In this document: one piece after another, positions 3,408 to 29,351 of the stretch | Position numbering within the stretch: the first letter of the stretch is position 1 | Layout of the letters: the number at the start of each line of letters is the position of its first letter | Source of the DNA: Thermoanaerobaculia bacterium | Lineage (GTDB): Bacteria; Acidobacteriota; Thermoanaerobaculia; Multivoradales; UBA5704 | Assembly: GCA_044226625.1 (NCBI GenBank) | Contig: JBGAGQ010000056.1 | Span: 1-44,958, forward strand | Direction: 5' to 3' | Length of the DNA: 44,958 bases | The notes under the pieces: generated by a model | The model's database searches: none | The model's input: only the letters and a program-made list of their open reading frames with translations | What the model was told of the DNA's origin: nothing | Program-made: the position numbers and the translations under genes

Positions 3408-5495
3408 ATGACCGAGCCGGTCTCCTCTTCCCCCATCGTCTCGACGCTCGCCACGGCCTGCCCGTTCGACTGCCCCGACGCCTGCAGCCTGGAGGCGCGG
3501 GTCGAGGACGGCCGGGTGACGAAGCTCGACGGCACCCATCGCAACCCGCTCACCGACGGCTACATCTGCTCCAAGGTGCGCCGTTTCCCCCAGGCGATGT
3601 ACGGGCCCGACCGCCTGCTCTATCCGCTGCGGCGCGTGGGCAAAAAAGGCGAGGGGCGGTTCGAGCGGATCTCGTGGGACGAGGCGCTCCGCGAGATCGT
3701 GAGCCGGGTCGAGACGATCCGCGACCGAGGGGTTCCCGAGGCGATCCTGCCGCTCTGCTACGGCGGCTCGAACGGTCTGCTCACGCACGACGCGGTCGAC
3801 TCGCGCTTCTTTCGCCGGATCGGCGCTTCGCGCCTGGCCCGTACCGTGTGCGCCGCGCCGACCCGTCGGGTCGCGACGGCTCTCTACGGCCGGATGGCCG
3901 GCGTGGCGCCGCAGGATTTCCGTTGCTCTCGGTTGATCATCGTCTGGGGGACCAATCCGTCGGCCTCCGGCATCCACCTCGTGCCGCAGATCCGCGACGC
4001 GCGGGCGGCCGGCGCGAAGCTGGTGGTCATCGATCCTCGGCGGACGCCGCTCGCCAAGCAAGCCGATCTTCATTTGCAGGTTCGGCCGGGCACCGATCTC
4101 GCCGTGGCGCTCGCGATCCATCGCCATCTGTTCACGACGGGGGCGGCCGATCTCGACTTCTTGCGATCCGCCACCGACGGCTGGGAAGAGCTCGAGCGCC
4201 GGTCGAGCGGTTGGACCTTCGAGCGGGCGGCGGAGGTCTCCGGCGTCGCGGCCTCGGACATCGAGCGCCTCGCCGTTTGGTATGCCGAGATCTCGCCCGC
4301 GGTCGTCCGCGTCGGTTGGGGGAGCGAGCGGAACCGTAACGGCGGCTCGGCGACCGCGGCCGTGATGGCGCTTCCCGCCGTGGGCGGAAAGTTCGGCGTC
4401 CGCGGCGGAGGCTATCTCCAGAGCAACTCGGGGATCTGGAACCAACAGCTGGACGGCGCGGGGACCATCGCCGAGCCCGAGGCCGCGACCCGGTTGATCA
4501 ACATGAATTTGATCGGCGAGACGCTGCTCGAGGCGAAGCCGGCGGTCGAGCTGCTGTTCGTCTACAACTGCAATCCGGCGATGACGCTACCGAACCAGGA
4601 GAAGGTGCTCGCCGGGTTCGCGCGGGAGGACCTGTTCACGGTCGTCTTCGATCCGTTCCTTACCGACTCCGCGCTCTGGGCGGATCTCGCGCTGCCCGCC
4701 ACGAGCTTCCTCGAGCATTCGGAGCTGGTTCGCGGGTACGGCGCCATGCTGCTCCAGGATGCCCCTCCGGTGGCCGACCGGGTGGGCGAGGCGCGGCCGA
4801 ACTACGAGGTGTTCGGCGAGCTGATCGAGCGGCTCGGCCTGACGAAGCCGGGCGACGCGGTCGAGGCCGGCGACGTACGACGGCGGCTGATCGGCTCGGG
4901 CAACGAGACCGCCGACGCGCTCGACCGCGACGGCGTCGCGTTCCCGGCGTTCGGGCAAGGCCCGATCCACGAAGGACCGACGCGGGTCGGGCCGATCCAC
5001 GAAGGACCGACGCAGGTCGGTCCGATCCAAATGCTCGACGAGCTGCCGCGCACCCCCGACCGGAAGATCCATCTCTGTCCCGCGGATCTCGACCAAGAGG
5101 CACCGGAGGGGCTGTACGCCTTCCGCGAGAATCCCTCGAACCCGGGCTTCCCGCTCACGCTCCTCTCGCCCGCGACCTCGAAGACGATCAGCGCAAGCCT
5201 CGGCCAGCTGGTCAAGCAGCCGGCCGCGGTCGACCTGCATCCGATCGACGCAGACGCTCGTGGATTGCGCCACGGCGATCCCGTCCGCGTCTGGAACGAG
5301 CTCGGGGAAGTTCACTGCCTCTTGCGCGTGACGGACGACGTACGGCCGGGCGTCGCCTCGCTCACCAAGGGCTTCTGGGCGCGCCACACGGCGAACGGCC
5401 GGACCGCCAACGCGCTCGCCCCCGATTCGCTCACCGACCTCGGGGCGGGCGCCTGTTTCAACGACGCGCGCGTGGAGGTCGCCGCGCGGGCCTGA
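3408..5495 (+). CDS. Molybdopterin-dependent oxidoreductase (DMSO reductase superfamily, N-terminal Fe-S cluster, no Tat signal)
   Basis: CPFDCPDAC...C, DRLLYPLRRVG, ISWDEAL, VIDPRRT, ADLALPA, and a C-terminal HPIDADARGL...GD.V.V.N molybdopterin dinucleotide-binding domain. Confidence 0.9.
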   Translation: MTEPVSSSPIVSTLATACPFDCPDACSLEARVEDGRVTKLDGTHRNPLTDGYICSKVRRFPQAMYGPDRLLYPLRRVGKKGEGRFERISWDEALREIVSRVETIRDRGVPEAILPLCYGGSNGLLTHDAVDSRFFRRIGASRLARTVCAAPTRRVATALYGRMAGVAPQDFRCSRLIIVWGTNPSASGIHLVPQIRDARAAGAKLVVIDPRRTPLAKQADLHLQVRPGTDLAVALAIHRHLFTTGAADLDFLRSATDGWEELERRSSGWTFERAAEVSGVAASDIERLAVWYAEISPAVVRVGWGSERNRNGGSATAAVMALPAVGGKFGVRGGGYLQSNSGIWNQQLDGAGTIAEPEAATRLINMNLIGETLLEAKPAVELLFVYNCNPAMTLPNQEKVLAGFAREDLFTVVFDPFLTDSALWADLALPATSFLEHSELVRGYGAMLLQDAPPVADRVGEARPNYEVFGELIERLGLTKPGDAVEAGDVRRRLIGSGNETADALDRDGVAFPAFGQGPIHEGPTRVGPIHEGPTQVGPIQMLDELPRTPDRKIHLCPADLDQEAPEGLYAFRENPSNPGFPLTLLSPATSKTISASLGQLVKQPAAVDLHPIDADARGLRHGDPVRVWNELGEVHCLLRVTDDVRPGVASLTKGFWARHTANGRTANALAPDSLTDLGAGACFNDARVEVAARA
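4959..5029 (+). repeat. In-frame 30-bp tandem repeat, about 2.3 copies
   Basis: ggcccgatccacgaaggaccgacgcgggtc / gggccgatccacgaaggaccgacgcaggtc / ggtccgatcca, encoding GPIHEGPTRV GPIHEGPTQV GPIQ. Confidence 0.95.
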
Positions 5496-5730
5496 GCTTT
5501 CGACCCTTGGGCCAGGAAGATGACTTCAGCGGGAGAAGCTCGTCAACCGCTTCGGCTGTCTTGGAATCTACCGCTTCGAGCCGATCGAAGAATCCCGGGG
5601 ACCACTCGGTCGACTGGACCTCTCGTTCTAGCGCTCTGACGATCAGGCGGTTGCGGCTGACTCGTAGGGCTCGCGAGCGATCGTCGATCTGGTCGAGCAG
5701 GGGCTTTGGAATGTGGATGCTGGTCGGCAT
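5458..5730 (-). CDS. CopG/ribbon-helix-helix antitoxin-like protein, C-terminus possibly truncated
   Basis: MPTSIHIPKPLLDQIDDRSRALRVSRNRLIVRALE fits the RHH pattern, followed by WSPGFFDRL. The 3' end overlaps the oxidoreductase stop. Confidence 0.7.
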   Translation of the reverse strand: MPTSIHIPKPLLDQIDDRSRALRVSRNRLIVRALEREVQSTEWSPGFFDRLEAVDSKTAEAVDELLPLKSSSWPKGRKLRPARRPPRARR

Positions 5731-5819
5731 ATTCGTTTGACGAGTGTAGGCGAGGTGACGGCCCGTTCCGCAACGAGCCCCAGGATGCCCCCCTCCGCCG
5801 CGGTAGACTCGCAATCGCC

Positions 5820-7202
5820 GTGGCCACCCTCTTCGACGACCAAGAACCCGTTCGCAGCCCTTCAAAGGCCGACGAGCCCGCGCCCGGGGCGCCGCTGCCC
5901 GAGCGGATGCGGCCGCGCACGCTCGACGAGATCGTGGGGCAGGAGGCGGTGGTGGGACCGGGCGGATTTCTGCGCCGGGCGATCGAGGCGGATCGGGTTC
6001 CGTCGCTCGTCTTCTGGGGGCCTCCGGGGTGCGGCAAGACGACGCTTGCGCGGGTGATCGCCGCCGCCACGTCGTCGCGCTTCGTGCCGTTTTCCGCCGT
6101 CACCTCCGGGATCAAAGAGGTCAAAGAGGTGATGGCCGAGGCGGCGGAGCACCGGCGCCGGACGGGCAAGCGCACGCTCCTGTTCGTCGACGAGATCCAT
6201 CGCTTCAACCGCGCGCAGCAGGACGCCTTCCTTCCTTACGTCGAGCGCGGCGACATCGTGCTGGTCGGCGCGACGACCGAGAATCCTTCGTTCGAAATCA
6301 ACGCCGCGCTTCTCTCCCGCTCGCGGGTCGTGGTGCTCGAGCCGCTCGGCGTGCCGGCGCTCGCCGGCCTTCTGCGCCGAGCGCTCGAGGATCCCGAGCG
6401 CGGGCTCGGCCATCTCGGTCTCGGCGCCGACGACGAGGCACTCGAAGGACTCGCCCAGCTCGCCTCGGGCGACGCGCGGAAAGCGCTCAACCTGCTCGAG
6501 CTCGCGGCGGCGGATGCGATGGACGAAGGGCTTCCGGCGCTCACCGCGGAATCGATCCGGCGCGTTGCCCAGCGCAAGGTGCTGCTGTACGACAAATCGG
6601 GTGAAGAGCACTTCAATCTGATCTCGGCGCTCCACAAGTCGCTCCGGGAGAGCGACCCGGATGCCGCGCTCTATTGGCTCTATCGGATGCTGGAGGCGGG
6701 GGAAGATCCGCTCTACGTCGCGCGGCGGATGATCCGTTTCGCGAGCGAAGACGTGGGGCTCGCCGATCCGAACGCCCTCGTCCAGACGCTCGCGGCGGCC
6801 GACGCCTACCACCGGCTCGGCAGCCCGGAAGGGGAGCTCGCGCTCGGCCAAGCCTGCCTCTACCTCGCGCTCGCGCCGAAGAGCAACGCGGCCTACGCCG
6901 CGGCCGGCCGGGTCCGCAAGACGATAGCGGACCGCCCCGCCGAGCCCGTTCCGCCGGTGATCCGCAACGCCCCAACCCGCCTGATGGCCGGGCTCGGCTA
7001 CGGCAAGGGATACGTCTATGCCCCCGAGACGGAAGAGGGCGTCGGTGGCATCGATTGCCTCCCCGAGGCGCTCCAGGGAACTCGCTTCTACCAACCGAAA
7101 GGCGACGGCTTCGAGGCCCGGTTGAAAGAGCGGCTGGAGAGGCTGAGGGCGCTCCGAGGGACGGTCAAAAAGAAACGCGGCACGAGAACGCCAGAGGCCT
7201 AG
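5820..7202 (+). CDS. rarA: Replication-associated recombination protein A (RarA/MgsA AAA+ ATPase)
   Basis: PLPERMRP, WGPPGCGKTT, LFVDEIHRFN, GATTENPSF, ISALHKSLR, ASEDVGLADP and APKSNA. GTG 5820 chosen as start. Confidence 0.95.
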   Translation: MATLFDDQEPVRSPSKADEPAPGAPLPERMRPRTLDEIVGQEAVVGPGGFLRRAIEADRVPSLVFWGPPGCGKTTLARVIAAATSSRFVPFSAVTSGIKEVKEVMAEAAEHRRRTGKRTLLFVDEIHRFNRAQQDAFLPYVERGDIVLVGATTENPSFEINAALLSRSRVVVLEPLGVPALAGLLRRALEDPERGLGHLGLGADDEALEGLAQLASGDARKALNLLELAAADAMDEGLPALTAESIRRVAQRKVLLYDKSGEEHFNLISALHKSLRESDPDAALYWLYRMLEAGEDPLYVARRMIRFASEDVGLADPNALVQTLAAADAYHRLGSPEGELALGQACLYLALAPKSNAAYAAAGRVRKTIADRPAEPVPPVIRNAPTRLMAGLGYGKGYVYAPETEEGVGGIDCLPEALQGTRFYQPKGDGFEARLKERLERLRALRGTVKKKRGTRTPEA

Positions 7203-7250: not shown

Positions 7251-7550
7251 ATGAGACAGACTAAGCCGCCGGTAAAACTCCTACCTTTCGATGCCGCGCG
7301 CTACCTCACCGACGACGCGGCCATCGCCGAGTACATGACCGCTGTTCTGGAATCGGGCGATCCCGACCTACTCGTCCTTGCCCTGGGTGACGTGGCGCGC
7401 GCGCGAGGGATGGCGCAGGTCGCCAAGGACTCCGGCCTTGGGCGGGAGAGCCTCTACAAGGCTTTGGCTCCCGGTGCCAAACCTCGCTTCGACACCATCC
7501 TCAAGGTCGCCCGCGCGCTCGGCATCCAGTTGACTGCCCGGGTGGCTTGA
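7251..7550 (+). CDS. Putative addiction-module antidote protein (HI1420-type HTH antitoxin)
   Basis: FDAARYL...IAEY...ALGDVARARGMAQVAKDSGLGRESLYKAL..GAKPRFDTILKV. Confidence 0.9.
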   Translation: MRQTKPPVKLLPFDAARYLTDDAAIAEYMTAVLESGDPDLLVLALGDVARARGMAQVAKDSGLGRESLYKALAPGAKPRFDTILKVARALGIQLTARVA

Positions 7551-7678: not shown

Positions 7679-7702
7679 TATCATTCGCCGCAGTGCGGCG
7701 AA
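7679..7702 (+). promoter_or_regulatory. -10-like box (TATCAT) abutting a perfect dyad, candidate PhaR operator upstream of the ATPase pair
   Basis: TATCAT at 7679-7684. TTCGCCGCA-G-TGCGGCGAA at 7684-7702, whose core resembles the two boxes upstream of phaR. Confidence 0.55.
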
Positions 7703-7754
7703 CGGGCCTCGCCCGAGCTGTGCTCTCCCATCCTTACCCTCAGCCAACCCGACC

Positions 7755-8675
7755 ATGCCGACCTCTCTCGCGTCTCGCCAACTGATCGTCGTCACCGGCA
7801 AAGGGGGCGTGGGGAAGACCTCCGTCTCCGCGTTGATCGGGAGCGCGCTCGCCGCGTCGGGGCGTCGGACGCTGGTCGCCGAGGTGGATCCGCGAGAGAA
7901 CCTGCACCGGATGCTCGGTGTGCCTCCTTCCGGTGGCGAGATCCTGCGGGCGGGCTCGAAGCTGTGGGTCCAGAATCTGAATCCTCAGCGGGTGATCGAT
8001 CAGCTCGTGCGCGAGCAGCTCAAGTTTGACCTGATCGCGAATCGCGTGCTGGAGAGTCCGATCTATCAGCACTTTACGGCCGGGGCGCCGGGCCTCAAAG
8101 AGATGGCGGTGCTCGGCCACGCGTTGCGCGTACTGCAAGGCGATGCGGGGGAGGCGGCCAAGGCCCCGCCAATCGATTCGGTGATTCTCGACGCGCCGGC
8201 GACCGGCCATGGCGTGGCGCTGCTTGCCGCGCCGCAGCTGGTCTCCGAGGCGGTGCGCTCGGGCCCGATCCACCGCATGTCGAAAGAGGTCGCCGAGCTG
8301 ATCGCCGATCCGGACCGCTCCGGCGTGGTCGCCGTGACGCTCGCCGAGGAGATGCCGGTGCAGGAGGTCTTGGAGCTGGCCGAGACCCTCCGCACGCGGG
8401 TCGGCCGGACGCCTGAGCTGCTGGTGACGAACGGGCTCTTCCCGCCCCTGCCGGAGGGTGAAGCCGCGTCGCCCGTTCCCGCCTCGGACCCCGCGGGTCA
8501 CCTCTGGCGCCACCGCCGGGCGAGCCAGGAGCGCGAGCTCGGGCGGCTCGCCGCCGATTGGCCGGGCCCGCGGCTGGATCTCTCGCTGCAGGCGCTGTCG
8601 GGAGGACCGGCCATGGTCTCCGAGCTGCGCGCCGAGGCGGAGGCGCAGAGCGCCTGGGAGACCTTGTGGAGTTGA
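7755..8675 (+). CDS. ArsA/Get3-related P-loop ATPase (first of pair)
   Basis: VTGKGGVGKT, GAPGLKE, ILDAPATGH and VTLAEEMPVQE. Resembles the first member of the Rv3679/Rv3680-type pair. Confidence 0.85.
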   Translation: MPTSLASRQLIVVTGKGGVGKTSVSALIGSALAASGRRTLVAEVDPRENLHRMLGVPPSGGEILRAGSKLWVQNLNPQRVIDQLVREQLKFDLIANRVLESPIYQHFTAGAPGLKEMAVLGHALRVLQGDAGEAAKAPPIDSVILDAPATGHGVALLAAPQLVSEAVRSGPIHRMSKEVAELIADPDRSGVVAVTLAEEMPVQEVLELAETLRTRVGRTPELLVTNGLFPPLPEGEAASPVPASDPAGHLWRHRRASQERELGRLAADWPGPRLDLSLQALSGGPAMVSELRAEAEAQSAWETLWS

Positions 8676-9745
8676 TCTCGAGCGAGGCGCCGCTCCTCGT
8701 CTTCGTCGGAGCCGGCGGAGTCGGCAAGACCACCCTGGCCGCCTCGACCGCCGTGCGCGCGGCGCGGGAAGGGAAGCGGACGCTGGTGATGACGTTCGAT
8801 CCCTCGCTCCGGCTCAAGGACGCCCTCGGTGTGGGCGAGGAAGCGCGCGACGCGGAGATCCCGGTGAGCCTTTCCGGCCTCGATCCGCTCCGCCCCGGCG
8901 GCTCGCTCGCGGCGAGCCTGCTCGACGCGCGGCGGACCTTCGACCGTCTGATCGAGCGCTACGCCCCAGACCCGGGGGCGCGCGACCGCATCCTCGACAA
9001 CTCCTTCTACGCCCAGCTCTCCGGCTCGCTCGGCGGGATCCTCGAATACATGGCGGTCGAACGGCTGTTCGAGGCGGCGCGCGACGGCCGCTACGATCAG
9101 GTGGTCCTCGACACGCCGCCCACGCGGCAGGCGCTCGACTTTCTGGAAGCGCCCGCGCGGATCGTCGGCTTCCTCGATAGCGGAGCGCTCAAGGTGGCGC
9201 TCAAGCCCTGGTTCGACGAGGCGGGCAGGCTCCGCTCTGCCGCCCGGTGGGGAGGGCTCGGCCGGCGCTTCGAGCGCTTCCTCGACGAAGTGGTCGGGCT
9301 CGACCTGTTGCGTGACATGGCCGAGTTCTTCCAGGCGTTCGCGCCGCTGTTCGCCGGCTTCCGCCAGCGCGCGAGCGAGGTCGAATCGCTGCTCCGCTCG
9401 CCGCGCACCCGCTTCGTTCTGGTCGCGGGCCCCGGGGAGGAGGCGATCCCCGACGCGCTGTTCTTCGCCCGCCGGCTCGGCCAGGCGGGGCTACATCTCG
9501 GCGTTCTGGTGGTGAATCGGGTTCACCCGCGGCTGCCGCAACTCTCGACCGGTGCCCCGCGGGACGGCCGCCACCTCCTGGCCTGGCTCGGGGAGCGCGA
9601 TCACCAAGGGCTCGCTCGGCTACAAGAGCTCGCCGGGACGCGGCAACCGCTTCTGCCGGTCCCCCTCTCGCCGGACGAGCCGACCGACCTTCCGGCGCTC
9701 GCCGCTCTCGGCGATTTCCTGGCCGAAGGGCTCGCGAAGGCGTGA
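8666..9745 (+). CDS. ArsA/Get3-related P-loop ATPase (second of pair)
   Basis: GAGGVGKTT, TFDPSLRL.DALG, EYMAVERL, VVLDTPPTRQALDFLEAP and VVNRVHP. GTG 8666 follows GGGAG and overlaps the upstream stop. Confidence 0.85.
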   Translation: MELISSEAPLLVFVGAGGVGKTTLAASTAVRAAREGKRTLVMTFDPSLRLKDALGVGEEARDAEIPVSLSGLDPLRPGGSLAASLLDARRTFDRLIERYAPDPGARDRILDNSFYAQLSGSLGGILEYMAVERLFEAARDGRYDQVVLDTPPTRQALDFLEAPARIVGFLDSGALKVALKPWFDEAGRLRSAARWGGLGRRFERFLDEVVGLDLLRDMAEFFQAFAPLFAGFRQRASEVESLLRSPRTRFVLVAGPGEEAIPDALFFARRLGQAGLHLGVLVVNRVHPRLPQLSTGAPRDGRHLLAWLGERDHQGLARLQELAGTRQPLLPVPLSPDEPTDLPALAALGDFLAEGLAKA

Positions 9746-9768
9746 TCGCGTGCCGGCCGCACGGGTTT

Positions 9769-9820
9769 TGACGCACCGCGGCAAAGACTCTTGACGAATC
9801 ATGCCGCAGCGCGGTAATTT
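9769..9820 (+). promoter_or_regulatory. phaR promoter with two 15-bp imperfect dyads (candidate PhaR operators)
   Basis: TGACGCACCGCGGCA at 9769-9783, TTGACG (-35-like) at 9791-9796, and TGCCGCAGCGCGGTA at 9802-9816 running into a TAATTT -10-like box. Confidence 0.6.
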
Positions 9821-9892
9821 TACTTCGCCGGGGCTCGGTTCCTACGAGCCGAGCCTCCTACCAGCAACAGACGAACCGAAAGAAGGTACCGA

Positions 9893-10336
9893 ATGGTCCG
9901 CCTGATCAAGCGTTACGAAAGCCGCAAGCTCTACGACACCGAGGAGAGCCGTTACGTCGGTCTCGACGAGATCGCCACCTGGGTCCGTGAGGGGCAGGAG
10001 ATCCGCGTGGTGGACAACGGCACCGGATCGGACGTGACGCCGCAGACCCTCACCCAGATCATCCTGGACGAGGGTCGCAAGGGCACCTCGTTCCTTCCGA
10101 GCGATCTGCTGCACGATCTCGTGCGGCTCGGCGAGCGGGCGGTGAACGCCGGCAAGGAGCAGCTGGCGCAGGGGGTCGACAAGCTGGTGCAGGCCTCGAT
10201 CGACCACCTGGGGCCGGTGCGCAAGGTGCGCGAAGAGATGGCGAGCCTGCGCAGCCGTCTGGAGGATCTCGAAGCTTCGCTCGCCGATCTCGAGCCCGCG
10301 GTCGGCGCGAAGAACGAAGGGGCCGAGCCGAGCTGA
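9893..10336 (+). CDS. phaR: Polyhydroxyalkanoate synthesis regulator PhaR-type DNA-binding protein
   Basis: IKRYESRKLYDTEESRYVGLDEI..WVREG.EI.VVD..TG.DVT..TL.QII is the PHB/PHA accumulation regulator N-terminal signature. C-terminal coiled coil. Confidence 0.9.
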   Translation: MVRLIKRYESRKLYDTEESRYVGLDEIATWVREGQEIRVVDNGTGSDVTPQTLTQIILDEGRKGTSFLPSDLLHDLVRLGERAVNAGKEQLAQGVDKLVQASIDHLGPVRKVREEMASLRSRLEDLEASLADLEPAVGAKNEGAEPS

Positions 10337-10397
10337 CCTTACGACGGTCGGGTTCATCACGAAGTGAGCATTGGGTCCGAAACCCAAGGAGAGTCAC

Positions 10398-10790
10398 ATG
10401 ATCCAAGAAATCGAGAACGCGACCGACAAGACCGGTGCCGCGCTTCAGAAGATGGGCCGCGAAATCGCGGCGACCGGCCGCAACGCCTGGCTCGCGAGCC
10501 TGGGCATCGTGGCGGAAGTGGATGAGCAGGGGCGCGACTGGTTCGACCGTCTGGTCGAGCGCGGTCGTCCGATCGCCCAGAAGCAGAAGGCGACGTTCGC
10601 CGACGCGACCGACAAGGTCGAGCGGTCGATGCGCGGGATCGGCAAGCTGGTCAATGACACCGTGGAATATGAGGTTCGCGGCGCCCTCGGGCGATTCGGC
10701 CTCGCGACGCGCGACGATCTGAAGGCGCTCGAGCGCCGGCTGGAAACCCTTTCGCGCGAGCTCGACGAGCTCACCGTCGTCGGCTCCTAG
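10398..10790 (+). CDS. Phasin / PHA granule-associated protein (PhaI-like)
   Basis: RNAWLASLG...FDRLVERG...ALGRFGLATRDDLKALERRLE. AAGGAG RBS. Confidence 0.85.
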   Translation: MIQEIENATDKTGAALQKMGREIAATGRNAWLASLGIVAEVDEQGRDWFDRLVERGRPIAQKQKATFADATDKVERSMRGIGKLVNDTVEYEVRGALGRFGLATRDDLKALERRLETLSRELDELTVVGS

Positions 10791-10834
10791 CCGTTTCAAC
10801 GCCGTACCCAACTTCAGATAAAAGGGACATTCCC

Positions 10835-11227
10835 ATGGCGACTCAAGACAAGAAGATCCAAGACGAGGTGAAGGACTCCGCCCACCGCATCTGGCTCGCG
10901 GGGCTCGGCGCTCTCGCGGCCGCCGAAGAGGAGGGCTCGAAGCTGTTCGCCCGCCTGGTCGAGCGGGGCAAGGATTTCGAGGCCGACGGCAAAGAGCAGT
11001 TCTCGAAGGCCAAGAAGAAGGCGGAGAAGGTCTACGAGGACGTGAGCGAGACGATCGACGACAAGGTGACCGCCGCGCTCCATCGCCTCGGCGTGCCGAC
11101 CCGCGACGAGATCAAGCGCCTGACCAAGAAGGTCGAGGAATTGACCGCCAAGGTCGAGCAGCTCAAGCCGAAGGCCGCCGTGGTCGACGACGAGAAAAAG
11201 ACGCCGGCCCGGAAGAAGGCCGAGTAA
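10835..11227 (+). CDS. Phasin / PHA granule-associated protein (PhaF-like, short Lys-rich tail)
   Basis: SAHRIWLAGLGAL...EGSKLFARLVERG...ALHRLGVPTRDEI..L..KVE.L, with tail KPKAA...PARKKAE. Confidence 0.9.
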   Translation: MATQDKKIQDEVKDSAHRIWLAGLGALAAAEEEGSKLFARLVERGKDFEADGKEQFSKAKKKAEKVYEDVSETIDDKVTAALHRLGVPTRDEIKRLTKKVEELTAKVEQLKPKAAVVDDEKKTPARKKAE

Positions 11228-11252
11228 CGAAGTTCGGTTTTCCCGGCATCCC

Positions 11253-11356
11253 AGCCCTCACCCCCGGCCCCTCTCCCGAAGGGAGAGGGGAGCCAAAGCG
11301 AGGATGCTCATGAGTTCTCCTCTCTCCCTTTGGGAGAGGGGCCGGGGGTGAGGGCT
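11253..11356. repeat. Inverted doublet of 40-bp REP-like palindromic elements
   Basis: agccctcacccccggcccctctcccgaagggagaggggag (11253-11292) is the reverse complement of 11317-11356 with 2 mismatches. Each arm has its own ctctccc-nnn-gggagag hairpin. The spacer is 24 nt. Confidence 0.9.
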
Positions 11357-11367
11357 AAGCCGGAGGG

Positions 11368-12630
11368 GTGTTGAGCGTGAGCAAGGCACGGGTGGCAGGG
11401 AGCAGGAAAGAGCCGTCGACAGGTTCGAAGATCGGCCTCGCCTTGGCGGGCGGTGGGCTCGAAGGGGCGATCTACGAGATCGGCGCGTTGCGCGCGCTCG
11501 ACGAGGTGCTCGACGGCTTCGACTTCAACGACGCCCACATCTACGTCGGCGTCTCCGCTGGAGCGTTTCTTTCCGCCTGCCTGGCGAACGATCTCACCAC
11601 CGCGCAGATGTGCAGGGCGATCGTCTCGTCCGAGCCCGGCGAGCACCCCTTCGTGGCGGAGACGTTTCTCACTCCCGCGTTTATTCGCGTCGCGGGCGCC
11701 GCCGGCACGCTGCCGCGGCTCCTCTTCGAAGCGATCCAGGATTACGTCGCGCGTCCGGCCGAGAAGTCGTTCCTCGGCTCGCTCACCCGGCTCGCGCGGT
11801 CGCTGCCGGTAGGCCTGTTCGACAACCAGCCGATCCGCCGCTATCTCGAGCGGATTTGGAGCATCAAGGGGCGGACCGACGACTTCCGAAAGTTGGGCAA
11901 GCGCCTTGTGGTGGTCGCGACGGACCTCGACTCCGGCCAGGCGGTGCGGTTCGGCGAACCGGGATTCGATCACGTGCCGATCTCGAAAGCGGTGCAGGCG
12001 AGCTCGGCGCTGCCGGGTATCTATCCGCCGGTCGAGATCGACGGCCGCCATCTCGTCGACGGCGTGTTGATCAAGACGCTCCACGCCTCGGTCGCCCTCG
12101 AAGCGGGCGCCGACCTCGTGCTCTGCGTCAATCCGATCGTCCCGGTCGACACCGCCCGCGCCCGCGGTGCCGGGTACGACGGGCATCTCAACCTGATGAA
12201 TCTCGGCCTGCCGACCATCCTGTCCCAGACCTTCCGGACGCTGATCCACTCGCGGCTGGAAATCGGTATGGCGGCCTATCAGACGAAGTTCCCCCAGTCC
12301 GACGTCGTCCTCTTCGAACCGGATTGCGACGACCACCGGATGTTCTTCACCAACATCTTCGGCTTCTCCGAGCGGCGCATGGTCGCCGACCACGCCTATC
12401 GGATGACCCGCCGCGACCTCGCGCGACGCGCGCCCGAGCTCGCTCCGCTGCTCGGGCGGCACGGCATCACGCTGCGCACCGACAAGCTCGAGGATCTCGA
12501 CCAGACCCTCTGGGAGAGCGTGGGACCGGGCGGCCGCGGCCAGTCCCGGCGCGAGTCGAAGAGCGACGTCGCCGACCGGCTCGACTCCGCCCTCGACCGG
12601 CTCGACGCCTGGATGGACGCGCAGAACTAG
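11368..12630 (+). CDS. Patatin-like phospholipase/esterase (candidate storage-polymer depolymerase)
   Basis: LALAGGGLEG oxyanion loop, GVSAG nucleophile motif, ASSALPG.YPPVEIDG and the DG catalytic Asp. Start is 11368 or 11377. Confidence 0.9.
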   Translation: MLSVSKARVAGSRKEPSTGSKIGLALAGGGLEGAIYEIGALRALDEVLDGFDFNDAHIYVGVSAGAFLSACLANDLTTAQMCRAIVSSEPGEHPFVAETFLTPAFIRVAGAAGTLPRLLFEAIQDYVARPAEKSFLGSLTRLARSLPVGLFDNQPIRRYLERIWSIKGRTDDFRKLGKRLVVVATDLDSGQAVRFGEPGFDHVPISKAVQASSALPGIYPPVEIDGRHLVDGVLIKTLHASVALEAGADLVLCVNPIVPVDTARARGAGYDGHLNLMNLGLPTILSQTFRTLIHSRLEIGMAAYQTKFPQSDVVLFEPDCDDHRMFFTNIFGFSERRMVADHAYRMTRRDLARRAPELAPLLGRHGITLRTDKLEDLDQTLWESVGPGGRGQSRRESKSDVADRLDSALDRLDAWMDAQN

Positions 12631-12650
12631 AAGCGCCGGAGGAGCGGGCC

Positions 12651-13277
12651 GTGAAGCTCTGCCCGAAGGTGATCCTCGAAGGCACGCGCCTCACCCACAA
12701 GACCGACCTCGCCTTCGCGCTCAACGAGCATCCGCGGGTCGTCGGCCCGCGCAAATACCGCTACCCCTCGCCACTCATCTCCGCCGAGTGGTGCGCCTTC
12801 ACGAACGTCCCCTGGGGCCGGGGGCTGATCAACTTCGCTCACGAAGAAGAGGCCCAGGCGCTCGAAACCTACGCCACCTGGGCACGCCTGTTCGAATTGC
12901 AGCGCTACTACTCGTGGATCGTCGACCGCTTTCACCTGTCGACGATTTCCCACCAGCTCGCCGCAACGGGCAAGCTCTACGACTTCCGTTGGCTCGAAGA
13001 GCGCCTGCTGCCGCTCAACTTCCGCATCGTCCTCTGCCGGCGCGCCCCCGAATCCTTCGCCGCCGCGCGCGAGGAGCGCCTGAAGATCTCGGGCAACCCG
13101 AGCCAGTACGACCGGCTCGAGCCCTTTCTCGAAGAGCAAGACCGCCTGGCCGACATCGCCGCTCGCTCGATCCTGCCGGTCTACACCCTCGACGTCACCC
13201 ACGACGACATCGCCCGCGCGGCGAACGAAGTGGCGGACTGGCTCGAAGCGACCGGCGGGCTCACGATGCCGGACTAA
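12651..13277 (+). CDS. Hypothetical protein with a divergent thymidylate-kinase-like P-loop fold
   Basis: GGAGGAG RBS before GTG 12651. VILEGTRLTHKT (Walker-A-like), WIVDRFHLS (DR motif) and a terminal LDVT. Codon usage looks gene-like. Confidence 0.7.
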   Translation: MKLCPKVILEGTRLTHKTDLAFALNEHPRVVGPRKYRYPSPLISAEWCAFTNVPWGRGLINFAHEEEAQALETYATWARLFELQRYYSWIVDRFHLSTISHQLAATGKLYDFRWLEERLLPLNFRIVLCRRAPESFAAAREERLKISGNPSQYDRLEPFLEEQDRLADIAARSILPVYTLDVTHDDIARAANEVADWLEATGGLTMPD

Positions 13278-24339: not shown

Positions 24340-25989
24340 TCAAGGGTCGGCGATCGGTGCGGTCCAGATCCCCTCGCGCTGGCCTGAGCGGCGATCGGTC
24401 CACGACGGAAAGAACTTGCCCATGAAGCCGGACAGGCTGTTGTAGTCGCCATACTGGTTGCCCAGGTCGGCTCCGCCGCCGGTCTCGTCGGTGCGCGCGG
24501 TGGTGACCTTGAGGGGCGCGCTCCAGGTTGTCCCGTCGTTGGCCGAGCCCTGGTACCAGAGGTTGGTGCTCTTCCGTGTCGCGTCGCCCACGGTGTCGTA
24601 ATAGATGACGCCGATCCTGCCGTTCGTCTCGTCGACCGCGAGCCACTGGTTGAACTGGTCGGTCTTGCCGGCGCGGTTGTTGATCATCCTCGGCGCCGAC
24701 CAGGTGGCGCCGCCGTCGGTCGAGCGGGCGAACCAGATCCGCGTCTTGCAGGCCGAGGCCGCGTTGTTGCCGGGCTCGTTCGCGGGCGAGCGGCAGCCGG
24801 AGGCTCCCGAGAGGTCGGTCCACGCAGCGTAGACGTTGTTCTTCGCGGCGGTGCGGTAGGCGCCGCCCGAGACGTAGATCAGCGCCCGGCGGTTGTTGAA
24901 CGAGGGAATCCCGATGTCGTAGCCGTCGAAGGTCGAGCCGATCTGCACCGGGCGGGCGAACGAAGCGCCGCCGTTCGTCGACTTGGCGACGAAGACCTTC
25001 CGGTTGTCGGTGGTTGGCCAGAACGCGAAGACGTGCCCCGCGGAGTTGGTCTTGACGTCGCCGCCGATCGCGGTGCCTCCGGTCTCCGAGCCGCTTACCC
25101 GGACCGGCGGCTTCCAGCCGGTCGAGGTCCGCCGGGCGACGAAGGCCGGATCGCCGTTGTGCCAGATGACGTAGACGTTGTTCTTGAACGGCGACGACGC
25201 GCTGTGGTCGACCCATTGGATCTGCTTGTCCGCCCCGGTGTGGTTGCCCGAGACCGTGCCGTCGAAGAGCCAGGTGGCGCCGCCGTCGGTCGAGCGGAAG
25301 GAGTGGATGCGGAGCATCGTGGCGCTGTTGTTGATTCCGATCGTCGTCGACCAGGCGACGCCGTCCGAGGTCCAGTCGACGGTGGGGTCGGAGTTGAACG
25401 CGTCGCCCGCGACCAGCGGCAGCGTCGTCTGGCCCCAGGTGGCGCCGCCGGTGGAGGAGTAGAACTGCGACTGGCGGCCGCTCCCTTCCAGATTGTTCGC
25501 CGCGGCGACGATCTGCTTCGGATTCTTGAAGTTGATCCGGATGTCGGACTCGCTGCGACGTCCCGAGGGGCCCGAGATCAAGACGTTCGCTCCGGTCGAA
25601 GCCCGGAGCGGCGGCTCCTGTCGGTCGGCTTCGCGACGGCCGCGCTCGAGATTCGGATGGTGGCGCATCCACTCGGCCGCCTCTTTGAGGACGAGAGGGT
25701 AGCCCCCGGTCGGATCGGTCGCGGAATAGCGCCCTTCCGGATGCGCCTCGCGCCAAGCCGCGCGCAGCCAGAGGGGGATCGGCAGGCGATCGTTCGCCTC
25801 CTCCCGGCGAAGGGCCGAGAAGTCCTGGTGCTTGCGGATGAAGCTCTCGAGCGCACTCCCTTTCGGGGCGCCGGCCGCGGCGAGCTGCGATTCGATCGTC
25901 GGCGGCGAGAGCGGGAGCGCCCCGGCCAGGGGCGCGGAGAGGGCGAAGAGAACGAGAGTCCGACGGAGGGTCTGAGACGATCGGCGCAT
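24340..25989 (-). CDS. Secreted sialidase-family / BNR Asp-box beta-propeller protein
   Basis: Signal peptide, repeated S.DGG.TW Asp boxes, and QYGDYN. Confidence 0.85.
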   Translation of the reverse strand: MRRSSQTLRRTLVLFALSAPLAGALPLSPPTIESQLAAAGAPKGSALESFIRKHQDFSALRREEANDRLPIPLWLRAAWREAHPEGRYSATDPTGGYPLVLKEAAEWMRHHPNLERGRREADRQEPPLRASTGANVLISGPSGRRSESDIRINFKNPKQIVAAANNLEGSGRQSQFYSSTGGATWGQTTLPLVAGDAFNSDPTVDWTSDGVAWSTTIGINNSATMLRIHSFRSTDGGATWLFDGTVSGNHTGADKQIQWVDHSASSPFKNNVYVIWHNGDPAFVARRTSTGWKPPVRVSGSETGGTAIGGDVKTNSAGHVFAFWPTTDNRKVFVAKSTNGGASFARPVQIGSTFDGYDIGIPSFNNRRALIYVSGGAYRTAAKNNVYAAWTDLSGASGCRSPANEPGNNAASACKTRIWFARSTDGGATWSAPRMINNRAGKTDQFNQWLAVDETNGRIGVIYYDTVGDATRKSTNLWYQGSANDGTTWSAPLKVTTARTDETGGGADLGNQYGDYNSLSGFMGKFFPSWTDRRSGQREGIWTAPIADP

Positions 25990-26097
25990 GGAGTGGGGTT
26001 CCTCCTTGGCTGGAACTTATCAAACCGGGGACGTCGGGGAAAACGCGCGAGCGAAAGCGTGGGAAACCCGGAACAACGCGGCCCCGAAAAGCCGAAA

Positions 26098-26127
26098 CGG
26101 CCGCGGACGCTCGCGCGTCCGCGGCCG
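26098..26127 (-). terminator. Hairpin downstream of the 964-aa gene
   Basis: cggccgcggacgc-tcgc-gcgtccgcggccg, with a short T run following on the minus strand. Confidence 0.65.
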
Positions 26128-26159
26128 CTCGGTGACGAGGGCTTACGGCCGGTGGAGCC

Positions 26160-29054
26160 CTACCGGAGGTCGAGCTCCCAGGAGTTGAGCGTCCCGGTGT
26201 CGGCCGAGGCGAGGTCGCGGACGCGGAGCTTCCAGGCGCCGTTCGTCGCCTTGCCGGTGAAGGCCGACAACGCCTGCGCCGGAGCGGTGAGGTCGGCGTA
26301 GACGGTGTTGATGTTGTCGGTGCCGGCGCCGGTACGGTTGTGGAGCAGGACCGTCGTGTTGTCCGGACCGATCAACGCCACCTCGAGATCGCCCTGATAG
26401 GTGTGGGTGATCGCCACCTTGACCGAGACGCTGGTCACGGTGCCGGTCGCCGGAACGGTGATCGTGTGGGTGATGCCGGTCGTGTTGTTGTCCGGGATCG
26501 CCGTGCCCACGGTCGCCTTGTAGTTGCCGTTGAAGGTGATCTTCCAGCTGTTGAGCGTCCCGGTGTCGGCCGAGGCCAGGTCGCGGACACGCAGCTTCCA
26601 CGCGCCCGAGGTGTTCTTGCCGTTGAACGCGGTGAGCGCCTGGGCGGCCGCTGTGGTGATGCTGTAGGTGGTGTTGATGTTGTCGGTGCCGGCGCCGGTC
26701 CGGTTGTGGAGCAGGACCGTCGTGTTGTCCGGGCCGATCAGCGCGACCTCGAGGTCGCCTTGGTAGGTGTGGGTGATCCCCACCGTGACCGAAACGCTGG
26801 TGATCGTCTGCGACGTCGCGACGTTGATCGTGCTGGTGATGCCGGTCGTGTTGTTGTCCGGAATCGCCAGCGCGGGGGTGGCCGAGGCGGTGATCACGGC
26901 GTTGCCGCCCACCGGGCAGGTGCTCGTGGTCGCCGTCGCCTGGGCCGAGTTACCCGAGGCGCAGGTGCCGTTCGACGCCTGGACGACGTAGAAGTACGGC
27001 GTGTTGCAGGTGAGGCCGGTGTTGCTGAACGAGGTCGTGGCCGAGGTCCCGACCAAGGTGTACGGTCCGCCGCTGGTCCCCGAGCGCAGGACGTTGTATG
27101 AGGTGGCCCCCGCCGAAGCGCTCCAGGACAGGTTGATCTGCGACGTGCTGATCGTCGTCGCGGTCACGCCCGTGGGCGCCGCCGGCGGCGTGCAGGTGTT
27201 GGTGCAGGCGGTGGTCACGAACGCGGTGCAGCCCGCGTTGCAGGAGAGGGTGCCGCCGGTGAAGCCCTGGCTGACGCAGGTCTGGCCGGCGAGGTCGGAG
27301 CCGTCGCAGACCTCCGGCACCTCGCGCAGGTTGTTGCCGCAGACCGGGCTCGTGCCGGCCGGCGCCGAGGTGGCGTAGACGTCGATCGAGTCGGCGGTGC
27401 CGGAGCTCTCGTTCCGGTTGTCGGTGAAGATGCCGAGCACCTGGCTGCCGAGCACGTCGAGACCGTTGTAGTCGCCCCACTGGAAGCTGTCCTCGATGTG
27501 CGGCGAGGTGGCCGTGGTGGCGCGGACCGGCGTGGACCAGGTGTTTCCGCCGTCGGTCGACTTGCTGTAGTAGATGTCGACGCTGGTGCGCGCCGCGTTC
27601 TGCCGCGTGTCGTAGAACATCACGTGCACGGTGCCGTCGGCGCCCACGCCGAGCCACTGGTGGAAGCGGTCGACGGTGCTGGCGTCGGCGGTCTCGTGCG
27701 GCGTGCGCAACGTCCAGGTCGCGCCGCCGTCGGAGGAGTAGGCGACGCGGATCCGCCCGTGGTTGTTCGCCGCGGTGGTCGACTCCGCCGCCGTCGTGTC
27801 GGTCCAGGCGACGTAGATGCGGTTGGCGAACGCCCCGTTCGTCAGGTCGGTGTCGGCCGACACGTACTGGAACGCGCGCCGGGTCTCCATCGCCGGGATG
27901 TTGAAGTCGTAGCCGTCCTGGTTGGTCGCGACCGTCACCGCGGCCGCGAAGGTGGCGCCGCCGTCGGTCGACTTGCGTACCAGGGTGGTCTTGCCCGTCA
28001 CCGTCGGCCAGAAGTAATAGACGTTGCCGTTCTTGTCGGTGGTGATGTCGCTGCCGATGCCTTCCTGGGCGGCACCCGACGACATCGAGACCGGCGCGCT
28101 CCAGGTGTTGCCGAAATCGGTCGAGCGCGAGAACTTGAGCACGTTGTTGTCGTGCCAAGTCATGTAGAGGTTGTCTTTGCGCGGCGAGGTCGCGAACTTG
28201 TCGACGTGGAGGAACTCCTTGTCCGAGATCGCGCCCGAGGTGAGCTCACGCCGGGGGTCGCCGGGGGTCACGGTCTGAAGATCGGTCCAGGTCGCGCCGC
28301 CGTCCGCCGAGCGATAGACCCACACGTCGCACGCCGAGGCGCCGCAACCGCCGAGCGTCGCCGCGTAGGCCTTGGTGCCGTCGGCCGAATACTCGATCGT
28401 CGGATCGCAGCAGGTGCTGCCGAGCGGCAAGGCCGCCGCCTGCGTCCAGGTGCTGCCGCCGTTGGTCGAGAAGTGCATCAGCTGGCCCGAGCCTGGGCCG
28501 TTCGAGCCGGCGATCACCTTGTTGGCGTCGAGCGGATGGATCTTGATCGACGACTCGGCGCCGCCGGTCGGCGAGGTGACCCGAACGTTGCCCGAGAGGG
28601 CGCGCAGCGGATCGTCCTCGTCGACGCCCTTCGGCCGGTTCGGCAACACGACGAAAGCGCCGTCGCGGATCGTCGCGCGCTCGTAGAATTTTCCGTCGAT
28701 CTGATAGCCGCGATGGAGGAGGTAGAACACCTGCAGCGCGCTCCTCGGATACTGCCCCTCTCCCGTGCGGCGAAGGCCCGGGTTCGCGCGGCGCATCTGG
28801 ACCCGGAAGAACGCCGGGATCGGATCCCGCTGCTCGATCTCGTTCGGCGCGAGCAGGGCCAGATCCTTGCGGGTCAGGGCGTAGTTGCGATCGTCCCACG
28901 GGCCGATCAGGGTGAGCTTGCCGTAGTCCACCCGAGGATCGACGCCTTTGGCGGCCTCGATGTGGAGCGGTACGACGGGTGACCTGGGCGTCGCGGCGAG
29001 CGCCGGCAGGGCGAGGGACAGAACTGCCATCGAAAACCAGAGGAGCTTCTTCAA
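26160..29054 (-). CDS. Secreted Asp-box propeller protein with Cys-rich repeat, FN3 and two proprotein-convertase P domains
   Basis: AAGGAG RBS and TTG start. Asp boxes, CGNNLREVPEVCDG, PAAPTG..A..S..QI.LSW...Y FN3, and two copies of IPDNNTTGI...ITHTYQGDL...GAWKLRVRD.ASADTGTLNSW. Confidence 0.88.
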   Translation of the reverse strand: MKKLLWFSMAVLSLALPALAATPRSPVVPLHIEAAKGVDPRVDYGKLTLIGPWDDRNYALTRKDLALLAPNEIEQRDPIPAFFRVQMRRANPGLRRTGEGQYPRSALQVFYLLHRGYQIDGKFYERATIRDGAFVVLPNRPKGVDEDDPLRALSGNVRVTSPTGGAESSIKIHPLDANKVIAGSNGPGSGQLMHFSTNGGSTWTQAAALPLGSTCCDPTIEYSADGTKAYAATLGGCGASACDVWVYRSADGGATWTDLQTVTPGDPRRELTSGAISDKEFLHVDKFATSPRKDNLYMTWHDNNVLKFSRSTDFGNTWSAPVSMSSGAAQEGIGSDITTDKNGNVYYFWPTVTGKTTLVRKSTDGGATFAAAVTVATNQDGYDFNIPAMETRRAFQYVSADTDLTNGAFANRIYVAWTDTTAAESTTAANNHGRIRVAYSSDGGATWTLRTPHETADASTVDRFHQWLGVGADGTVHVMFYDTRQNAARTSVDIYYSKSTDGGNTWSTPVRATTATSPHIEDSFQWGDYNGLDVLGSQVLGIFTDNRNESSGTADSIDVYATSAPAGTSPVCGNNLREVPEVCDGSDLAGQTCVSQGFTGGTLSCNAGCTAFVTTACTNTCTPPAAPTGVTATTISTSQINLSWSASAGATSYNVLRSGTSGGPYTLVGTSATTSFSNTGLTCNTPYFYVVQASNGTCASGNSAQATATTSTCPVGGNAVITASATPALAIPDNNTTGITSTINVATSQTITSVSVTVGITHTYQGDLEVALIGPDNTTVLLHNRTGAGTDNINTTYSITTAAAQALTAFNGKNTSGAWKLRVRDLASADTGTLNSWKITFNGNYKATVGTAIPDNNTTGITHTITVPATGTVTSVSVKVAITHTYQGDLEVALIGPDNTTVLLHNRTGAGTDNINTVYADLTAPAQALSAFTGKATNGAWKLRVRDLASADTGTLNSWELDLR
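26176..26870 (-). repeat. Intragenic duplication of the P domain (366-bp offset)
   Basis: For example ccaggagttgagcgtcccggtgtcggccgagg at 26178 versus ccagctgttgagcgtcccggtgtcggccgagg at 26544. Confidence 0.9.
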
Positions 29055-29291
29055 GAGCCTCTCCTTGAATGGGCCCGAAGGCCGAAGGGTAAAGGGCGCC
29101 GGACGCAGTCCTCACGCAAGGACCGACCGGCGGCCGTCAGAAGGCGCGGAGAAGGGGGACCTCTCCCAAAGTTGTAGGCCGGCTGCGGGCCGGCGAAAGC
29201 GATTGCTACTTGTGGGAGTGCACGAGCGAGGGCAAAGCGGGTCGCCTCGACGAAAAGAAGGCGAAAAGGGGAGCGAGGGAGCGCAAAAATG

Positions 29292-29321
29292 AAAAGGGCG
29301 GCCCCCCGAAGGGAGCCGCCC
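29292..29321 (-). terminator. Intrinsic terminator of the peptidase gene
   Basis: aaaa-gggcggccccc-cgaa-gggagccgccc on the plus strand, which is a hairpin followed by TTTT on the minus strand. Confidence 0.75.
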
Positions 29322-29351
29322 GGGCGAAACGGGCCTACGAAACGCCTTGAA

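Follow-up and report, generated by a model that had tools for sequence, protein, structure and literature searches.

The 44,958-nucleotide (nt) stretch of DNA analyzed here (contig JBGAGQ010000056.1 of a Thermoanaerobaculia bacterium, phylum Acidobacteriota; herein referred to as the window) contains, at positions 7755–12630, six genes that encode a pair of ArsA/Get3-fold ATPases related to mycobacterial BagA and BagB, a PhaR-like regulator, two phasin-like proteins and a patatin-like lipase. All six lie on the plus strand and show the codon-position GC (GC3) pattern of real genes (table 1). The ATPase family, PhaR, phasins and patatins are already known; what is new is their conserved combination, a 17-bp box that the ATPase genes share with the phaR-led genes, a setting that is apparently not one of polyhydroxyalkanoate (PHA) storage and the hypothesis on BagAB to which these lead. 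We tentatively propose that the two ATPases form a Get3-like heterodimer acting on coat proteins at neutral-lipid bodies, an explanation that we prefer while holding its probability to be somewhat short of even.

The ATPase Pair Is of BagA/BagB Type by Sequence

The top NCBIfam match of the upstream ATPase is BagA (NF053622, 97.2 bits) and that of the downstream ATPase is BagB (NF053621, 239.4 bits), both under the respective equivalog cutoffs of 400 and 521, and the closest solved relatives are 6bs3_A (Rv3679; 83.6 bits, with 31.7 bits against Rv3680) and 6bs3_B (Rv3680; 190 bits). Judged from these matches, the pair is of the BagA/BagB type at sister-group distance, and we refer to the genes as bagA and bagB. 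As with Mycobacterium tuberculosis BagA and BagB (Rv3679/Rv3680; PDB 6bs3–6bs5), the genes form a tandem of single-domain ArsA-fold members in the order A then B, each nearest its own counterpart, with the same P-loop asymmetry (GKGG in A, GAGG in B) and no arsenic pump. The pair differs from its actinobacterial relatives in its distance (BagB has 37.7% identity to the Tsukamurella orthologue, and the scores lie far under the NCBIfam cutoffs) and in its neighbors, which are a PhaR-like protein, phasins, a patatin and a common box rather than crp, RidA, WhiB, and PBP.

The BagA-like protein carries the P-loop GKGGVGKT and switch II DAPATGH, and the BagB-like protein GAGGVGKT and DTPPTRQ; across 35 BagB rows, neither the Lys nor the Thr of the P-loop varies, and BagA rows likewise conserve this loop. 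Profile–profile alignment of BagB with BagA (probability 99.8) places ∼57 extra BagB residues directly after switch II, an insert in which W182, F183, F221, F222, F225, and F232 are invariant across the 35 sequences. The start of bagB overlaps the stop of bagA by 10 nt (GTG 8666) or 4 nt (TTG 8672), and the two genes are, as predicted from this overlap, one translationally coupled unit. The BagB-type family comprises 2129 representative clusters at E ≤ 1e-30, with many fused forms of 650–840 amino acids (aa), and a BagA–BagB fusion of 666 aa was seen in genomic context (locus L176); such natural fusions argue that both halves work together. The fused gene of L176 (7319–9319) recurs in L175 and L177, all from one family of the class, with phaR and patatin ∼4–6 kb off, and the interval between fusion and phaR in these loci holds a small phasin-like open reading frame (ORF), an NAD-dependent epimerase/dehydratase-family gene and a PlsC-type acyltransferase. 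A distant acidobacterial bagAB (L171) is followed by a third ArsA-family gene (8781–9956; ArsA_ATPase 290 bits, ArsA_HSP20 71.6 bits), which carries an HSP20-like domain at its C-terminus and belongs to the alpha-crystallin type of bacterial Get3 homologues.

Likeness to the arsenite-pump ATPase ArsA lies in the N-terminal nucleotide-binding half, which matches Pfam ArsA_ATPase; the ArsA family proper (TIGR04291) scores 54–55 bits on both proteins against a cutoff of 650. Unlike ArsA, the pair has no metalloid-binding Cys and consists of two genes rather than one two-domain protein, and the ArsB, Acr3, ArsC, and ArsD families had no match among the scanned window ORFs (8 + 19 + 4, in three scans). 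With Get3/TRC40, the pair shares the P-loop family (TIGR00345 matches; Get3 chains among the PDB matches), a dimeric ATPase and a helical subdomain after the switch regions (both being predicted here); the client-binding helices of Get3 also follow the switch regions, with a TRC40-type insert and a hydrophobic groove, according to one report (PMC6593721). It departs from Get3/TRC40 of fungi and animals in having no dimer-interface CxxC zinc motif, and indeed no Cys at all, in being a predicted heterodimer of unlike halves, in a sequence that is not alignable to Get3 after about residue 181 and in having no tail-anchored client among the four neighbor proteins of the module. The original prediction for this DNA had described the same co-oriented gene set with its overlapping ATPase pair, had likened that pair to the Rv3679/Rv3680 tandem and had set it apart from arsenic efflux for want of Cys and of ars genes; the family matches, a Cys count of zero in both proteins and the scanned ORFs bear out all three points.

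Weak matches of the ATPase proteins to the CbiA, ParA, and MinD P-loop families, together with a short Lys-rich tail on phasin 2, could suggest that the pair spaces or segregates storage bodies in the manner of ParA or MinD, with PhaF-like phasins as adaptors. However, the tail is not conserved among homologues, no DNA- or membrane-binding element was seen, and the closest relatives are ArsA, Get3, and BagAB rather than ParA or MinD; we regard such a positioning role as most improbable.

Linkage of bagAB to the phaR Unit across Acidobacteriota

BagB was found in 38 of 40 relatives from the order, and bagAB lies with phaR and a phasin in 28 of the 35 evaluable loci, 26 of which also carry the patatin. 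Across the class Thermoanaerobaculia, represented by the best 80 of 353 matches, 56 of 70 evaluable loci are linked and two more have the units 6–6.6 kb apart, and of 22 loci drawn from further families and classes within the phylum, 21 were evaluable and 12 proved linked. The arrangement of bagAB and the phaR unit is far more frequent than chance. The original prediction had called for a neighborhood survey of this ATPase subfamily, and the linkage proves not to be unique to this genome. The ATPase genes do precede phaR, as had been claimed, but not directly: 147 nt (9746–9892) separate bagB from phaR, and in relatives unrelated genes, the majority in opposite orientation (PIN, DinB, Ser/Thr kinase, DUFs), often take up 1–6 kb at this junction, which indicates two neighboring transcription units and not one operon. 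In one locus of the same genus (L046), a phospholipase-D-like gene (4915–6210; PLDc_2, 141 bits) stands between bagB and phaR on the same strand.

Adjacency has been kept despite rearrangement, the units being divergent in L070 and phaR–patatin lying upstream of the fused gene in L176 and L177, and the flanks are not conserved beyond the genus, with rarA present in same-genus loci only; we take these as signs of selected adjacency. BagB and phasin also co-occur where the genes are unlinked (G049, G084, G072, G139, G098, G311, G263, and G202). In a FastTree phylogeny of 125 BagB rows, the linked rows fall into one clade with support of 100 (36 linked, 9 unlinked, and 1 on a short contig), a pattern that may reflect a single ancient joining of the units in Acidobacteriota, followed by separations.

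The phaR Unit and Its Transcripts

The PhaR-like protein combines an N-terminal PHB_acc_N domain, well over the cutoff of 25 bits, with a C-terminal coiled-coil-like tail, and it scores 86 bits against the TIGR01848 equivalog, under the cutoff of 109.45. Both phasins pass the PF05597 gathering score of 28.8, whereas against TIGR01837 phasins 1 and 2 reach 54.2 and 85.6 bits, both under the cutoff of 94.7. Phasin 1 is absent from a good part of the related loci; phasin 2 has an invariant WLAGxGA near its N-terminus and LGVPxRxEI in its C-terminal helix, and the genome's two phasin genes are both inside this locus. The patatin exceeds its cutoff of 27.7 bits, and GGG, GVSAG, and DGV motifs can be read in its translation; GVSAG and DGV we take to be the motifs of the patatin catalytic Ser–Asp dyad.

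Parts of all six genes are found on RNA-library contigs of a near relative (95–99% alike, from four metatranscriptome libraries of one study), which may include DNA carry-over, show no starts or levels and have depths that cannot rank genes. They cover bagA at 7697–7874, bagB at 8883–9017 and pieces of the patatin, and a single contig (10176–11256) spans the 3′ end of phaR and both phasins; the gap between bagB and phaR is covered by no RNA-library contig, from which we draw nothing on read-through.

A 17-bp Palindromic Box before Both Units

The box stands once before bagA and twice before phaR (table 1), and in the alignment of same-genus loci the palindrome is invariant at both positions before phaR, with a conserved block once before bagA. 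A matching box stands before phaR in most loci, other classes included. With a position weight matrix (PWM) built from 45 phaR-upstream sites, 42 regions upstream of bagA gave 16 with a box scoring ≥9.5 between −36 and −79, of which 7 belong to the same genus and 9 to different genera; L054, L062, L065, and L074, in which phaR is not adjacent, also have the bagA-upstream box. The exact core CCGCASTGCGG has four sites in 6.6 Mb, namely the box before bagA and three that lie inside ORFs. Because the same palindrome precedes both units, these most likely form one regulon under the PhaR-like protein. Following the PhaR paradigm (PMC9049629), we infer that this protein is a box-binding repressor and the box its putative operator.

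The layout resembles the PhaR–PhaP circuit of PHA producers, Cupriavidus necator among them, where the gene of a PHB_acc_N regulator is preceded by operator-like repeats and followed by phasin genes; in the published model, PhaR leaves the DNA for a nascent hydrophobic surface (PMC9049629). It differs in that the searches gave no PHA synthase, a patatin lipase gene closes the unit and the box also stands before an ATPase pair.

A genome scan at ≥14 bits gave 21 sites, and the reversed PWM gave 19, so that candidates beyond the locus are not above chance and a wider regulon is undefinable by PWM; FadB-like, citrate synthase, aldehyde-dehydrogenase-like, and DUF4126 genes were accordingly dropped as extra members. 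No PWM match was found before phaR or bagA in three distant loci described below (L195, L200, and L203). A promoter scan gave no sigma-70-like site under its rules, the hexamers near the boxes (table 1) being read by eye only, and a terminator-like hairpin at 9802–9816 is the palindrome of the proximal box itself.

The Storage Bodies Are Probably Neutral-Lipid Bodies

The original prediction read the pair as a Get3-like chaperone that loads phasins or the patatin onto PHA granules. The tie to phaR, phasins, and patatin is conserved, and in Pfam the coat proteins do count as Phasin and the regulator as a PHB/PHA accumulation regulator, with a PHA_gran_rgn gene following one distant bagB as well (L253, below); the PHA granule itself, however, is not supported. 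Neither PhaC_N nor class III PhaC turned up in the genome studied here (6.6 Mb in 133 contigs, 97.9% complete). In a sample of 301 genomes from the phylum, which includes kin that are not independent and for which co-occurrence counts are descriptive, PhaC_N occurs in 0 of 29 BagB-positive and 10 of 272 BagB-negative genomes, a non-overlap that is not significant alone since about one shared genome would be expected from 10/301. Five of these 10 genomes belong to genus g18 of the same order, in which phaR is beside phaC with a solitary phasin and neither BagB nor patatin is present. To our knowledge, patatin-domain enzymes are lipid hydrolases, and we know of none that is a PHA depolymerase. 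We consider loading onto PHA granules very improbable.

Other counts from the same sample concern coat proteins and neutral-lipid synthesis: PF05597 phasins are found in 28 of 29 BagB-positive and 13 of 272 BagB-negative genomes, and wax ester synthase/diacylglycerol acyltransferase (WS/DGAT) in 16 of 29 and 17 of 272. One WS/DGAT is present in the genome studied here, and in six BagB-positive genomes from at least three families WS/DGAT lies 3–8 kb from bagB (G033, G142, G154, G267, G277, and G263); in G263, bagAB is apart from phaR yet beside an acyl-CoA synthetase and WS/DGAT. Other neighbors at bagAB loci include a PlsC-type acyltransferase, an ABC1 kinase and HMG-CoA reductase. Judged by the genes present, what these bacteria store is probably neutral lipid, in bodies of wax ester, triacylglycerol or perhaps some other apolar lipid, and not PHA granules. 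PF07993 was uninformative as a fatty acyl-CoA reductase marker, as it matches all 14 control genomes.

In two other acidobacterial families (L166:10745–15270 and L164:4447–8897), a set made up of WS/DGAT or a PlsC-type acyltransferase, an ABC1 atypical kinase and HMG-CoA reductase lies 3′ of the patatin and is reminiscent of plastoglobule-type lipid droplets; ABC1 kinases have been named as lipid-droplet proteins of cyanobacteria and plastids (PMC12223511). One survey calls neutral-lipid accumulation in Acidobacteriota unexplored (PMC10351704).

BagAB beyond the Acidobacterial Clade

Our survey covered one phylum and 29 long metagenome loci, the latter being those long enough to read among 80 loci from a metagenome scan with the distant BagB alignment. 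Four of the 29 have a PHA-type neighbor. In L195 (53% GC), a PHB_acc_N gene forms phaR–bagA–bagB end to end, in L200 and L203 a PHB_acc_N gene adjoins bagAB, and in L253 a PHA_gran_rgn gene (PF09650, 9048–9383, 112 aa) begins 30 nt after bagB, with two UbiA prenyltransferase genes upstream. These four loci stand at different places on the 125-row tree, some on long branches, and, by the starred branches, the three loci with an adjacent phaR must go back to two origins or more. Among the 29 long loci, distant bagAB also lies within a few kb of glycerophosphodiester phosphodiesterase genes (L200, L206, L267, and L270) and of diacylglycerol-kinase-domain genes (L206 and L260).

Actinobacterial lipid inclusions provide outside evidence. 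The supplements of PMC10699116 re-analyze three lipid-inclusion proteomes of 228, 180, and 480 proteins; their tables list the Rv3680 orthologue for Rhodococcus jostii and MSMEG_6193 and MSMEG_6195, the BagA/BagB orthologues, for Mycobacterium smegmatis, and count Rv3680 among the proteins common to the inclusions of both (PMC10699116). Our locus resembles these systems in that respect, and it resembles the Rhodococcus MLDS system, in which a coat protein of lipid bodies and a DNA-binding regulator of its own are encoded together (PMC5504291), although the coat and regulator families are different. In the literature texts searched, neither BagAB nor ArsA-like ATPases were found to be linked with PhaR, with phasins or with lipid droplets. 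Mycobacterial work on BagAB reportedly concerns stress phenotypes only, and the primary BagAB paper is reported to mention lipid-synthesis interactors.

A Proposed Mechanism and Its Alternatives

We hypothesize that a nascent hydrophobic surface would titrate the PhaR-like repressor off the DNA, by analogy with the PhaR/PhaP circuit, that the phasin-like proteins would coat the lipid-body surface and that the patatin-like lipase would mobilize the stored lipid. The least certain step concerns the BagA–BagB heterodimer, which may open and close with ATP as Get3 does and may hold and release short hydrophobic or amphipathic helices of phasins, PhaR or patatin, the coat proteins thereby being loaded onto, or stripped from, the lipid-body monolayer; the aromatic-rich insert after switch II of BagB is a candidate client-binding surface.

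Several observations weigh against this proposal. No transmembrane-like segment was found in the four neighbor proteins (the top 19-residue hydropathy is 1.62, in the patatin core), and a classical tail-anchor client is therefore absent from the module. The box was not found upstream of bagA in 26 of 42 loci, including all from other classes, and the PWM scan found none before WS/DGAT in this genome. Thirteen of the 29 BagB-positive genomes gave no WS/DGAT match, so that the stored lipid may differ among lineages, and lipid bodies have yet to be observed in these organisms, which are uncultured. The lipid-inclusion fractions list hundreds of proteins, contaminants included. The other 25 of the 29 long metagenome loci have no PHA-type neighbor, many of them showing actinobacterial WhiB/PBP context, and in Tsukamurella the context is crp ... 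RidA–bagA–bagB–whiB–PBP, with no phasin. Finally, the units are separable, 7 of 35 evaluable loci in the order and 14 of 70 in the class being unlinked, and G315 carries a full phaR–phasin–phasin–patatin unit with no BagB match, which speaks against strict dependence.

The last of these observations would be expected if the synteny were inherited only, BagAB being a general housekeeping or stress ATPase that sits beside the phaR unit with no common function, and they join the single clade of linked BagB rows, possibly the trace of a single old event, the unrelated genes inserted between the units and the unrelated context of actinobacterial bagAB in favoring that explanation. Inheritance alone fits poorly, however, with a box common to both units even where they are apart, with the loss, outside the genus, of flanks of the rarA type but not of the paired units, with phasin accompanying BagB in eight genomes without linkage, with the recurrence of phaR or PHA_gran_rgn adjacency elsewhere on the BagB tree and with WS/DGAT ≤10 kb from bagB in six genomes from at least three families. 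We judge it fairly unlikely.

Another possibility keeps the lipid-body context but has BagAB handle not proteins but lipid, or else some reactive small molecule from glycerolipid metabolism; an apolar or toxic intermediate might be captured or handed over, as arsenite is from ArsA to ArsB, and the cell thereby protected during the storage or mobilization of fat. In PMC10597346, mycobacterial bagAB is connected with methylglyoxal and with the toxicity of glycerol and of nitric oxide; glycerophosphodiester phosphodiesterase and diacylglycerol-kinase-domain genes near distant bagAB, a glyoxalase-family gene between bagB and phaR in L092 and the missing tail anchor point the same way. On the other hand, the pair has no conserved adjoining transporter or enzyme partner, metalloid-type Cys ligands are absent and what recurs beside it from lineage to lineage is a regulator predicted to sense hydrophobic surfaces, together with coat proteins. 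This role is unlikely in our estimation, and our preferred explanation remains that BagAB acts on the coat proteins.

Other Features of the Window

Outside the locus, the interval between rarA and the bagA promoter holds an HI1420-type antitoxin-like gene (7251–7550, 131 bits) with no toxin gene seen adjoining; it looks like an insertion because rarA ends ∼100 nt before bagA in same-genus loci. Right after the patatin stop, a ∼214-aa open frame (12633–13277) has GC3 below that of its neighbors and no Pfam match, and it escaped the GC3-based gene call. A long inverted repeat (13321–13411/13563–13654) follows 3′ of the patatin in the lowest-GC part of the window (0.625), its arms consisting of 72 nt at 93% complementarity plus an adjoining 19 nt around a spacer of 151 nt; no tRNA was found. 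Three large genes on the minus strand (24340–31724; GC3 0.91–0.94) carry BNR, proprotein-convertase P, fibronectin-III, PA, and DUF11 domains, and their products have the look of proteins that are secreted or displayed on the cell surface.

Table 1. Genes and Boxes of the bagAB–phaR Locus, in Coordinates of the Window.
Feature	Position	Strand	Details
Palindromic 17-bp box TCGCCGCAGTGCGGCGA	7685..7701		54 nt before bagA-like start, just after TATCAT; PWM 15.6
BagA-like ArsA/Get3-fold ATPase (ATPase-1)	7755..8675	+	306 aa; Pfam ArsA_ATPase 82 bits
BagB-like ArsA/Get3-fold ATPase (ATPase-2)	8666..9745	+	359 aa from GTG 8666 (or TTG 8672); ArsA_ATPase 76.9 bits
Distal box before phaR TTGACGCACCGCGGCAA	9768..9784		PWM 20.8/22.9
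Proximal box before phaR ATGCCGCAGCGCGGTAA	9801..9817		Between TTGACG (9791–9796) and TAATTT (9815–9820); PWM 26.5, the genome's highest score
PhaR-like predicted DNA-binding protein	9893..10336	+	147 aa; PHB_acc_N 88.2 bits
Phasin-like protein 1	10371..10790	+	139 aa; PF05597 68.7 bits
Phasin-like protein 2	10835..11227	+	130 aa; PF05597 103.1 bits
Patatin-like lipase	11368..12630	+	420 aa; Patatin (PF01734) 85.8 bits

Implications for BagAB and for Lipid Storage in Acidobacteriota

The acidobacterial context and the shared box provide a testable hypothesis for BagAB, namely that it acts on coat proteins at neutral-lipid bodies, with which the actinobacterial lipid-inclusion proteome tables independently agree. 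A broader and more doubtful proposal is that BagAB-type ATPases, the mycobacterial pair included, are a conserved bacterial lipid-body machine, a Get3-like heterodimer that would spend ATP on placing amphipathic coat proteins on a lipid monolayer or removing them from it, and that PHB_acc_N "PhaR" proteins are general sensors of apolar storage surfaces and not of PHA alone; if this were true, the glycerol phenotype of bagAB mutants would be that of a failed lipid-storage sink. Annotation of phasins or PhaR should not by itself count as evidence of PHA storage, and the locus directs attention to a system of fat storage, so far unstudied, in Acidobacteriota of soil and sludge.

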